Virus record (IMG/VR): IMGVR_UViG_2541047122_000031
Reading direction: 5' to 3' (one strand)
Origin: a virus
Taxonomy: Duplodnaviria; Heunggongvirae; Uroviricota; Caudoviricetes
Length of the DNA stretch: 17,704 nt
In this document: in pieces, positions 12,001 through 15,000 of the stretch
Position numbering within the stretch: position 1 is the stretch's first letter
Layout of the letters: each line of letters starts with the position of its first letter
Position numbers: made by a program

Positions 12001-15000
12001 GCAAGATTACCCGCAAGCTCCTTCCGTGCTTCGCCAAACTGTTTCTGATACCCCAGATTTGTGGTGCCAGCAATATTGTCGTACTGCTGCTCACTGTTCA
12101 GGTCATCGACCTTTTCCATGAAGTTATCTTCAGCCGGGCGGAGGATATTTTTGTAATCCTGCCACCCTTTCCAGGCCACTTCTTCCTGTGCTATTTGCGC
12201 TGCTGTTGGTTTTACTTTGGTATCACCACCGCCTTTACTTCCACCCATAATGGCCCCCTGGATAACAAAAAACCCTGCCGGAGCAGGGTCAGAATGTGAA
12301 TTACAATGTTGGTTTAAACACAATGATGAAAACTGTAGCAGTCAGACCGCTATCCTGAACACCATGAAGCCATCCTCATCATCCGGCATTCGCTCAAAGC
12401 CCAGTCGTTTTCCCAGCCGGATAAATCCCCGCCTTGCCGTATGGAACTCAGCCCAGCGTCCGCCAGCCAGATGGGTTAATGTCTTCACCTCCGGCAGGTA
12501 ACGCTCAACGCTGTTACTCCCCGTACACACGCCCAGCAACACCAGAACATAAGGGATACCATCAGCACTGAGCACAGAACGCAGCACCAAAAAGCCATCA
12601 GGTGCCTCAAAACAAAACGCCTGCTTTTTAAGGCAGGCGTCTTTAACTTCATTCATAAATTCAGGGTTGCGGGAATTTCTCACAACACGCTGCATATACC
12701 AGAGAATTTTATCGTTCATTCTCTCACCTGAAACGGGTGCCATATCGGCTGAACCTCAGCAACCAGTTGACGGGGACTCTCGTCCCCGTCGCGGTTTTCC
12801 TACTGCTTACACTGTAAGAACGCCGCAAACTCCGCTCCCCACAAATTCAGCCGGAACTCACACAGTGAACCGTGCAACATCCAGATGGTGAAGATAACCG
12901 TCATGCAAATTGTGACGGTGATAAGCGATTTTTGCGACATAGCGCTTGACTCCTTTTACAGAGAGGCGCTAACCTTCTACTTGCTTAAGGTACGAAGTGT
13001 TAGGGCCTCGGGTTAACGTTAAGTTGACTCGGGGCCTTTCCACATCAGGCCTTCAGGTTCACCCTCCAGCCATCAGCCGAAAGGCACCCACGCATAATTT
13101 ACGGTTTTTGCCCTGTACGGGCAATAAAAAACCCGCCATCACAGCGGGTAGTAAACGGTTACCGGATACAGGTCAGAATTTCAGGCCAATGCCAGCAGTA
13201 ACGCCACTCGTGCGCCAGTCGCCAGAGCCGGAACCTTCGTAAGCCACATCCAGTGTAACACTCTCATTCAGGTTAAACTGTGCACCTGCAGCCCACGCAA
13301 GGGAGTTTTTTTTCGTGCTGTTGCTTTCAGAAAATCCGCCACTACTGTTAATATTGTCCTTAATTTTCAGGTCAGCGCTAACTTTAGCAACGCCCATCCC
13401 TGCCATCGCATATAAACTCATGTACTGATTAACCCGCCATGAAGGCCCCGCTAACAGACTCCAGTAATTCGCCCTGATATCCGTTCTGGCAGAAGCTGCC
13501 GGATTCTTAATCTTCCTGGTATGATCGGCTGACTGCACATCAATAAATGTCTGTGAGTTAGTGAGAGAACGCGTCCATGTAAAAGAGGTGATAACGCCAA
13601 AATCATCCGTTATCTCGTAGCGATACCTGATATTAATGCCCTGTGGATTTTTATCCTTGCCTTCATATCCACTGACCCGACCATCTGTATATTCGCCCAA
13701 TGAAGAAAAGTAGTTTCTGTTGACGAAATGACTGAAAGTCTCCCTGTTATGAGCAGTCGCATCCTTTACAAAATCCTTCAGTCCCGGAAACTGAAAGTGC
13801 GCATACCCCAGAGAAATTGTATGCTCTCCTTCTGCTGCATGTGCAGATAAATTTACACAGGCAATCCCGGAGATTGCACACACAACCAGTGTTGCTATAC
13901 TCTTCATTTAAGATATCCTGTATTCAGATAACACGCTAAACTTTTTAATAATACATCTTTTTAGACATTTTAAATGAATATTAAAGACTCGCTTCAACTA
14001 ATCATATACTGATGTATTAATAACCAGGACCTTATCTATATACGGCTTTCGAATATCCCATGTTGCACCACCGGAATAATGCTCACAGGAATATATTTTA
14101 TTTCCTGTAGCACCAGTGGATGTGGTATAAATCGGTCGATCATAAGGAGTTCTTTTCCAGTTATAATACCCGACCAGTGCAGGCATGATTGCGCATGGAT
14201 ATCCAAGGTCCTTTTCAAATTTGATATCAACAGGTATTAACTTCGCGTCAAGCAGCATCATTTCGCCATGATAAATCATCTCACCGTCCGGGTTATACAT
14301 GGCGATACCATACTCAGAAGGTGGAGTAACCATATTCGCGAAAGCATAAACCGTCGTAACACCAGGGTTCGTTCCCCTGACAATTACATGAAGCCTTAGT
14401 GCATGATATCCATCAATCTGTTCATGCGTGTACATGACATCGGCCTTCTTCTCTGTTCTGATAAAGAAAAAACAACTTTTGCCTGACGGGATTGATGTTT
14501 TAAAAAAAGACTTTTCAGTCGCCGGTATGGTGCCTTTGTTGATCAGACACTGCGGCGTAAAACCTGGACTTATCCATACGCTGCCATCCGGCTTCATAAT
14601 GCTCAAACCGTACATAACACTTATCCCCAGAATGTATAAATATAAGATCCCATACCCTGCTCAAGATTCGACCACGTCACCGTATTGTCATTAATGGTTA
14701 TCTTCGGTACTTTCCGATCCGCAAATACATTATTCCAGGGAAATAAACAACATACAGCCTGCAATGATTTCCCGTCGGGTTTATTAGTGTACGTCTTTGA
14801 GCCAGACTCCGCTGTAAATCTGTCCAGGAAAAATACTGGAGTCAGCACGCCCGTAACATTAACGTTATTTCTGTTATAAATGGCAAAACCGTATTCCAAT
14901 ACTCACCTCCTGATCAGCGTAATCTGCCTATGCGAACAGCCAGTCGTCCATTCTGGTCATAAACCTCAATTTTATCATTGCGGATCACCAGTCCTACATT

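Follow-up and report, generated by a model that had tools for sequence, protein, structure and literature searches.

The hok/mok/sok module is the textbook type I toxin–antitoxin (TA) system, and the coupling of toxin translation to the mok leader frame is treated as part of its definition. The locus described here raises the question of how, if at all, a Hok toxin is translated when this frame is missing. The locus lies on the minus strand of IMG/VR record IMGVR_UViG_2541047122_000031, a stretch of 17,704 nucleotides (hereafter, the window) that is 933W/Sp5-type Stx2 prophage DNA, and it encodes a 46-aa toxin of the Hok/Gef family. Our best explanation, with a probability of roughly 0.6, is that it is a self-contained hok/sok-type type I TA cassette with a toxin of Hok cluster 72, carried as an accessory 'moron' between lom and L0129. 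The identity of the locus as a hok-type cassette is close to certain, a functional TA system with non-canonical translational control is an even bet, and the structural switch that we propose for Hok translation, which derives from predicted folds, is tentative. The gene and the type of system are already known, annotated and catalogued; what appears to be undescribed is an abundant Hok cluster equipped with tac, ucb, fbi, a Sok target, Sok and a 3′ hairpin and devoid of a canonical mok. As cluster 72 is abundant (Stx2a phages of O157:H7 included), has every RNA element but mok, and encodes a toxin under selection, it offers a natural test of whether mok is required or can be replaced.

A Hok/Gef toxin of cluster 72

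The toxin gene is a 46-codon open reading frame (ORF) at 12800–12940 (−), with the translation MSQKSLITVTICMTVIFTIWMLHGSLCEFRLNLWGAEFAAFLQCKQ. Residues 8–44 of the peptide match Pfam HOK_GEF (PF01848) with 33.2 bits against a cut-off of 22 (E = 4e-8), and PHROG 251 matches the peptide with E = 2.8e-24. The first-pass annotation of the window, made from sequence alone, had aligned this ORF along its whole length with HokA, and the alignment with K-12 HokA does run end to end, at 45% identity (E = 4e-12). HokA is also the best NCBIfam model for the peptide; identity as HokA itself is ruled out, as the score on the HokA equivalog NF007290 is 38.4 bits against a cut-off of 89. Because the Pfam cut-off is passed and the equivalog cut-off is far from reached, the peptide is, as judged from these profiles, a member of the Hok/Gef family and not HokA.

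The description of the gene as missed by the ORF track applies to the original 933W and VT2-Sakai records, in which no gene is annotated at this position, and does not extend to RefSeq, where PGAP annotates WP_000078907.1, 'Hok/Gef family protein', with 100% identity in O157:H7 genomes and 933W. Several phage records name the peptide 'MokW-like host killing' or 'host toxic membrane protein'. Furthermore, the peptide is exactly entry 72_1589 of the Hok catalogue of Escalera-Maurer et al., where cluster 72 is a 'high-abundance cluster' and 72_1589 was cloned as pAZ3-72_1589 (LRP157) for overexpression toxicity assays; 42 of the 45 Hok constructs were toxic, and 72_1589 is absent from the three that were not (19_179, 60_1482 and 69_1540). 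The catalogue deals with coding sequences only and leaves Mok, Sok and mRNA structure unanalysed (bioRxiv 10.1101/2025.08.07.668861 for all these statements). The DNA allele cloned as 72_1589 differs from that of the window by a few synonymous changes.

Identity with hokW-sokW, a hok locus of the same prophage type, was considered and ruled out, as the window contains neither the HokW primers nor the HokW ORF, and as HokW is a member of cluster 35. Because the window locus is not hokW-sokW, Sp5/933W carries two hok loci, which bears on how the partial phenotype of the hokW-sokW deletion is to be interpreted.

For comparisons among relatives, we combined copies from different genomic contexts with 80 IMG/VR loci, giving 90 copies, of which 65 are distinct and 57 are both complete and distinct; 25 representatives were aligned. 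The hok ORF is under purifying selection, with a mean ratio of non-synonymous to synonymous substitution (dN/dS) of ~0.25 among 33 distinct alleles, a value that is affected by RNA-structure constraint and by the non-independence of the pairs. Of the 65 distinct copies, 64 have it intact. In most of these no frame runs into hok, and the persistence of an intact, selected ORF in such copies argues against reading the locus simply as a dead relic. The first-pass annotation had called the module 'active or relic'; for the toxin gene, the second half of that description is unlikely on this pattern of substitution.

Predicted promoters, fold-back elements and Sok-like RNA

The functional unit is a self-contained cassette of ~390 bp (13124–12735), larger than the span of 12769–13060 first assigned to it, since it extends to 13124 with the promoter and 5′ end and to 12735 with the 3′ fold-back. 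Homology among the representatives begins at a promoter-like TTGCC-N17-TAnATT and ends ~3 nt past GGCACCC, the reverse complement of GGGUGCC, the predicted RNA 5′ end. The predicted hok promoter (13096–13124, −) consists of a −35 element TTGCCC (13124–13119), a 17-nt spacer and a −10 element TAAATT (13101–13096), and six copies of the cassette, taken from different genomic contexts, show no variation at its TTGCC and TAnATT positions. Immediately upstream is the lom terminator (13149–13131, −), whose stem-loop and T run border on the −35 region and contribute part of it; the cassette is an insertion that leaves no gap to the end of lom.

Position 1 of the Rfam model RF01794 (sok) corresponds to 13089, which by homology places the predicted full-length hok mRNA, of ~355 nt and running from 5′ GGGUGCC to 3′ GGCACCC, at 12735–13089 (−). 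In E-value mode, the leader aligns with this model over its full length (13089–12927, −; 35.6 bits, E = 3e-6), and control leaders score 118 (hokC), 120 (hokA) and 89 bits (R1-type hok of R100). Aligning the locus with family and covariance models was the check proposed by the first-pass annotation; the Pfam match exceeds its cut-off and the Rfam alignment, full-length as it is, stays below the gathering score of 59. The description of a hok/sok-type type I TA locus is supported. We also observe that RF01794, despite its name, does not model the antisense RNA but the hok leader on the sense strand, between +1 and the hok AUG, and that cluster-72 leaders score 36–43 bits on it. Because the gathering score thus misses the whole group, Rfam-based sok counts in enterohaemorrhagic E. 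coli genomes are likely underestimates.

We folded the window RNA with RNAfold and the alignment of the 25 representatives with RNAalifold, and the single-sequence and alignment folds agree. In the full-length RNA (13089–12735), the 5′ end pairs with the 3′ end, 5′ GGGUGCC...CGGCUGA with 3′ UCAGCCG...GGCACCC; the partners correspond to a tac element at 13073–13089 (−) and an fbi element at 12735–12752 (−). Over the 25 sequences, pairing in the two tac–fbi helices amounts to 97.7% and 80.7%, as compared with 31–49% in controls slid by 1–3 columns. When the RNA is truncated at the 3′ hairpin (13089–12769, 321 nt), the 5′ end instead pairs with GGAAAGGCCCC, which places the ucb element, GGAAAGGCCC, at 13031–13040 (−), the last C of the stem being 13031. 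Depending on the pair, the tac–ucb pairs can form in 23–25 of the 25 sequences, and ucb lies within a near-invariant motif, GAUGUGGAAAGGCCCC.

The 3′ hairpin (12769–12790, −), GACGGGGAC-GAGA-GUCCCCGUC, follows the hok stop and is the perfect 9-bp GC-rich hairpin that had been pointed out. In relatives, four of its nine pairs show compensatory changes, and it is 98.2% paired. Its position corresponds to that of the hairpin at the end of the 361-nt truncated, active hok mRNA of R1, and we predict that it forms the 3′ end of, and an exonuclease block for, a truncated mRNA of ~321 nt. Read on the plus strand (12768–12791), the same hairpin is followed by CGGTTTTCC and was called terminator-like, so it might be bidirectional and also stop antisense transcription from L0129.

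Two further hairpins are predicted around the hok start. The Sok-target hairpin of the truncated mRNA (12963–13009, −), supported by Rfam alignments and by the folds, has a GAGGC...GCCUC foot and a CUUAAGC loop with a YUNR motif, and has as its R1 homologue the hairpin bearing the mok Shine–Dalgarno sequence (SD) and AUG; the pairs of the target hairpin show one-sided changes only. The SD hairpin, found in local folds (12940–12971, −), pairs the hok SD GGAG (12953–12950) with the anti-SD CUCU (12963–12960) and is closed by UAGCGC/GCGCUA. All 13 distinct variants have the SD paired (anti-SD CUCU/CUCC).

On the plus strand, the hexamers TTGACT (12946–12951) and TAACCT (12970–12975), which are separated by 18 nt and had been suggested to drive an antisense RNA, are present and occupy the place that the sok promoter has in the leaders of hokA, hokC and the R1 type; we predict a sok promoter there (12946–12975, +). 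The hokA −10 element is also TAACCT, and its complement AGGTTA is invariant in the aligned representatives. To place the ends of the RNA, we mapped the annotated K-12 sokC (16952–17010) through the Rfam model to 12983 and 13045; the predicted Sok-like RNA of ~63 nt (12983–13045, +) thus falls close to the interval of about 12982–13050 first proposed. In its predicted fold (−32.5 kcal/mol, z = −6.4), 11 unpaired nucleotides at the 5′ end (GCUUAAGGUAC) precede a 16-bp hairpin, whose GGCC...GGCC core spans 13004–13036, and a UUUCC tail follows; the 5′ tail is complementary to the CUUAAGC loop of the target hairpin. The upper stem varies between lineages yet remains paired. In all 12 distinct variants, the Sok strand forms a stronger hairpin than the mRNA strand does (means −21.1 versus −12.2 kcal/mol), because G–U pairs on one strand become C–A mismatches on the other. 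This asymmetry, a property of modelled folds, argues that a plus-strand Sok-like RNA is a selected product.

Possible routes of Hok translation without a mok frame

In R100, hokC and hokA, the mok AUG is located in the 5′ arm of the target hairpin (Rfam positions ~97–99), within the first nucleotides covered by Sok. At this position the window reads GUA and other cluster-72 leaders read UAC or CUA, and no start codon is present there in any of the 25 cluster-72 representatives. Upstream of the hok ATG, stops occur in the three frames after 18, 31 and 47 nt, and none of the stretches in between contains an ATG, GTG or TTG. The first-pass annotation, which had reported closure within ~45 nt and no ATG and had concluded that a canonical overlapping mok is not evident, is therefore upheld next to hok, but farther upstream ATG 13045 and GTG 13043 do open short ORFs.

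The upstream ORF from ATG 13045 (13019–13045, −) has eight codons (MWKGPEST) and stops at TAA 13021–13019. The motif that contains its start, the same one in which ucb lies, is found in 53 of the 57 complete distinct copies. The ORF that follows it is 1, 8, 10, 15, 17, 19, 21, 22, 24, 25 or 61 codons long; only six distinct sequences have the 61-codon version, which overlaps hok by 80 nt, and seven others have a 70-codon overlapping ORF from a different ATG. The candidate of a conserved upstream ORF that replaces mok is rejected, as frames and lengths are heterogeneous in these copies. As far as reading frames can tell, cluster 72 is without a conserved mok, and the window copy is without a frame that overlaps hok. 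In the window copy, the hok translation-initiation region is reached by a single upstream ORF, a predicted GTG-initiated frame of 24 codons (12969–13043, −) whose TAG stop (12971–12969) lies at the foot of the SD hairpin. This TAG is invariant, but is also part of the sok −10 box.

With neither a start at the mok position nor a frame running into hok, translation of Hok must use another route. We infer the transcripts, their processing, the action of Sok and this route from homology and predicted folds, and propose the following sequence. A constitutive promoter would give the ~355-nt hok mRNA, which would be inert while its 5′ tac pairs with its 3′ fbi. Trimming of the 3′ end to the GC-rich hairpin at 12769 would free tac for ucb and let the leader refold into the Sok-target hairpin. 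The ~63-nt Sok-like RNA (12983–13045) would then bind this hairpin through its 5′ tail and extend into a 63-bp duplex, for which cleavage by RNase III is expected; once Sok is depleted, the 46-aa Hok would be made and damage the inner membrane. Hok itself may be reached by either of two routes, namely direct initiation at AAGGAG-N9-AUG once the foot of the target hairpin has sequestered the anti-SD (GCCUCUCU), or unfolding of the SD hairpin by ribosomes that terminate the GTG 13043 ORF at TAG 12971–12969.

The predicted accessibility of the hok SD changes between the states in the direction of this scheme. In the window RNA the unpaired probability of the SD is 0.01 at full length, 0.31 after truncation, and 0.01 when the Sok-bound region of the truncated RNA is masked; it opens on truncation because the anti-SD is then contested between the SD and the GAGGC/GCCUC foot of the target hairpin. 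In all 25 representatives the SD is at least as open in the truncated as in the full-length RNA, with medians of 0, 0.07 and 0 for the full-length, truncated and masked states, and in an R1-type control the accessibility of the hok SD and AUG is unchanged between the states.

A number of results weigh against the cassette being an active system of this kind. Truncation is predicted to open the SD only slightly in most relatives, as the median of 0.07 indicates. In the R1-type control the thermodynamic method missed the known opening of the mok SD after truncation, which makes the accessibility values only suggestive. The R1 system cannot do without mok translation, which has to proceed at least as far as the hok SD (PMC9841398). 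The SD hairpin of the window has a stability of −12.4 kcal/mol, as against −13.8 to −15.0 kcal/mol in R100, hokC and hokA; the idea that it is weaker than in mok-dependent loci was rejected, since it is not clearly so, and direct initiation is therefore not clearly favoured. In addition, Rfam at the gathering threshold gives no match in the whole window, and a generic sigma-70 scan of 12650–13200 calls neither promoter, the hok promoter having 8 of 12 consensus positions where 9 are required and the sok −10 element TAACCT matching consensus at 3 of 6. Both predicted promoters thus rest on homology and conservation. Finally, the 933W context has no terminator after fbi, and literature searches returned no usable transcript, processing, translation or ribosome-footprint data for the hok locus.

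The negative outcomes of the Rfam and promoter scans would suit a small hydrophobic ORF with coincidental hairpins. We consider this explanation vanishingly improbable, because the Pfam match lies above the gathering cut-off, the leader aligns over the full Rfam model, the cassette is present in 1750 E. coli genomes with hairpins that covary, and the peptide has been toxicity-tested by others and is absent from the non-toxic list.

The obstacles to translation pose a more serious alternative, in which the window locus is a translationally crippled copy. An ancestral leader ORF from ATG 13045 would have run into hok, a 1-nt deletion in the 933W allele would have shortened it to eight codons, and the SD hairpin would never be opened, so that little or no native Hok is made and the cassette persists by hitch-hiking or through another use of Sok or of the RNA. 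Premature mok stops upstream of hok do abolish toxicity in R1, and the SD hairpin is as stable here as in mok-dependent loci. Thirteen of the 57 complete distinct copies have a 61- or 70-codon ATG ORF that overlaps hok by 80 nt, and a 1-nt deletion in a T run is what separates the eight-codon ORF of the window from the 25-codon ORF of phage φ419 (phi419), whose leader is otherwise 98% identical. The hok ORF, moreover, does not appear in those supplements that we covered of a Sakai Ribo-seq study on novel small genes. Yet a crippled toxin gene would not be expected to show the dN/dS and the near-universal intactness reported above, most of the intact copies themselves having no overlapping frame. 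The upstream ORF is conserved neither in frame nor in length, and its long versions start from two different ATGs (−103 and −130), which looks like chance; ATG 13045 and its GAAGG also lie inside stems predicted in both RNA conformations. The 933W allele, in addition, is kept at ≥99% identity in 233 E. coli records. On balance, we regard a crippled copy as unlikely. Were the locus translationally silent, it would be one more degenerate chromosomal hok copy, and ordinary.

Returning to the cassette as an active TA system, its strongest form can be offered only tentatively. Cluster 72 may be a natural mok-less branch of hok/sok, present in about one-third of complete E. coli genomes, in which the toxin is translated from its own SD after 3′ processing, and in which Sok represses by dissolving the target hairpin, which restores SD:anti-SD pairing, and by RNase III cleavage, rather than by blocking a leader ORF. 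If this is true, mok coupling is not a family-wide requirement, and Sp5/933W gains a second, independently regulated Hok toxin.

Setting, spread and relation to known hok systems

Many E. coli O157:H7 chromosomes match the hok region with 100% identity, as does phage 933W at 45505–45880 of 61670, and the window is collinear with a PA20 prophage over 13.8 kb at 97.4% identity. The hok gene sits between lom and L0129 in a late/accessory region in which all neighbouring genes are on the same strand. The locus had been placed at a prophage end; lying inside this region and ~16 kb from the right end of the phage map, it is not at the end.

In RefSeq and 933W, the downstream gene L0129 starts at ATG 12743 (−), which falls within the fbi element of hok. 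Because the alignment of PHROG 610 with L0129 begins only at residue 9, and because one phage record starts the gene 24 nt later (ATGAACGAT, 12719), the true start is probably at 12719, right beyond the edge of the cassette. A single ORF of 2793 codons (1156–9537, −), the RefSeq 'LPD38 domain-containing protein', takes up almost half of the window downstream of the accessory genes.

Of 5426 complete E. coli genomes, 1750 carry the cassette according to a search for distant DNA matches, which also found it in 198 phage records. Its genomic settings number at least four: Stx phages, where it follows lom; P2-like prophages, which have it behind ogr at their end; a lambdoid prophage, with the cassette between J and the tail-fibre gene; and a ykgM-linked island. 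A scan of representative genomes found four cluster-72 loci only, two of them in records labelled as Gram-positive, a Planococcaceae metagenome-assembled genome (L009) and a Vagococcus sp. (L011, 1501–1638). Both are cluster-72 hok cassettes of the P2-like type, and the records are most likely contaminating or mis-binned enterobacterial contigs.

The copies are also mosaic. Between the window and φ419 (L006), the leader is 98%, the ORF 67% and the 3′ untranslated region 95% identical; between the window and another copy (L027), the corresponding values are 87%, 95% and 98.5%. Judging from these identities, the leader, which would carry Sok specificity, and the toxin segment seem to recombine independently.

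The first-pass annotation saw in the locus an addiction module that stabilises the prophage. This is an assumption, and hokW-sokW, the only hok locus studied in the prophage, is reported to promote lysis and phage release on induction (PMC8621323). By analogy, a contribution to lysis on induction would be at least as plausible as addiction, because the locus lies downstream of lom and on the late-transcript strand and because of the role reported for hokW-sokW. Specifically, Q-antiterminated late transcription may read through hok, so that on induction hok RNA outruns Sok and Hok aids membrane damage and phage release, a proposal that concerns the role of the cassette and is compatible with its being a self-contained TA module. 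The order and common strand of lom, hok and L0129 would fit such read-through, as would the lom terminator directly upstream of the cassette. The Sp5 study reports that hokW-sokW raises phage release ~2-fold and that its deletion leaves most lysis intact, and the sections covered, the discussion among them, do not mention the second, lom-proximal hok locus (PMC8621323). This role for the window locus remains speculative, and phage lysis cannot be the general function of the cassette, since it also occurs in non-inducible remnants and in a non-phage island. Its presence in prophage remnants and in a non-phage island suggests that the cassette is primarily a selfish, mobile module.

Among the known systems, hokW-sokW of Sakai prophage 5 shares with the window locus the prophage type (Sp5/VT2-Sakai/933W) and the general design of a type I TA system with an antisense RNA, and differs from it in its toxin, a HokD-like peptide of 51 aa (MKQQKAM...) (Takada et al. 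2021, PMC8621323). Identity at the peptide level is found with 72_1589 of Hok cluster 72.

In overall architecture the window locus resembles hok/mok/sok of R1 parB, which we examined as the copy with an identical Hok on R100. Both have a Hok/Gef toxin and leaders that are homologous over the whole Rfam model, and both have the tac/fbi fold-back, the alternative tac/ucb pairing, the GAGGC/GCCUC target hairpin, an SD hairpin by the hok AUG and a 3′ hairpin that ends the truncated mRNA. R1 Sok is likewise an antisense RNA of ~64 nt with an 11-nt 5′ tail and one long hairpin, expressed from a promoter that overlaps the hok SD region. The two loci differ in the toxin, with 30% peptide identity and 52 aa in R1 versus 46 aa in the window, and in the leader, with 89 bits for R100 versus 36 bits for the window on the Rfam model. 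In particular, the R1 mok AUG at mRNA positions 116–118 opens a 70-codon frame, whereas the window has GUA there and stops in all frames. The chromosomal hokA/mokA/sokA of E. coli provides the closest named Hok, a homologous leader and the same sok −10 element, and differs by a leader score of 120 bits and a canonical mok AUG (CUAUGUAUAG) in the target hairpin.

The systems zorO-orzO and tisB-istR-1 are of type I without a leader peptide, and are controlled through 5′-untranslated-region structure, processing and an antisense RNA that acts away from the toxin start. If Hok were translated directly, the window locus would resemble them by analogy of mechanism only, and not by sequence or structural homology. 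By its predicted elements, the window locus keeps every classic hok/sok RNA element except the mok leader frame.

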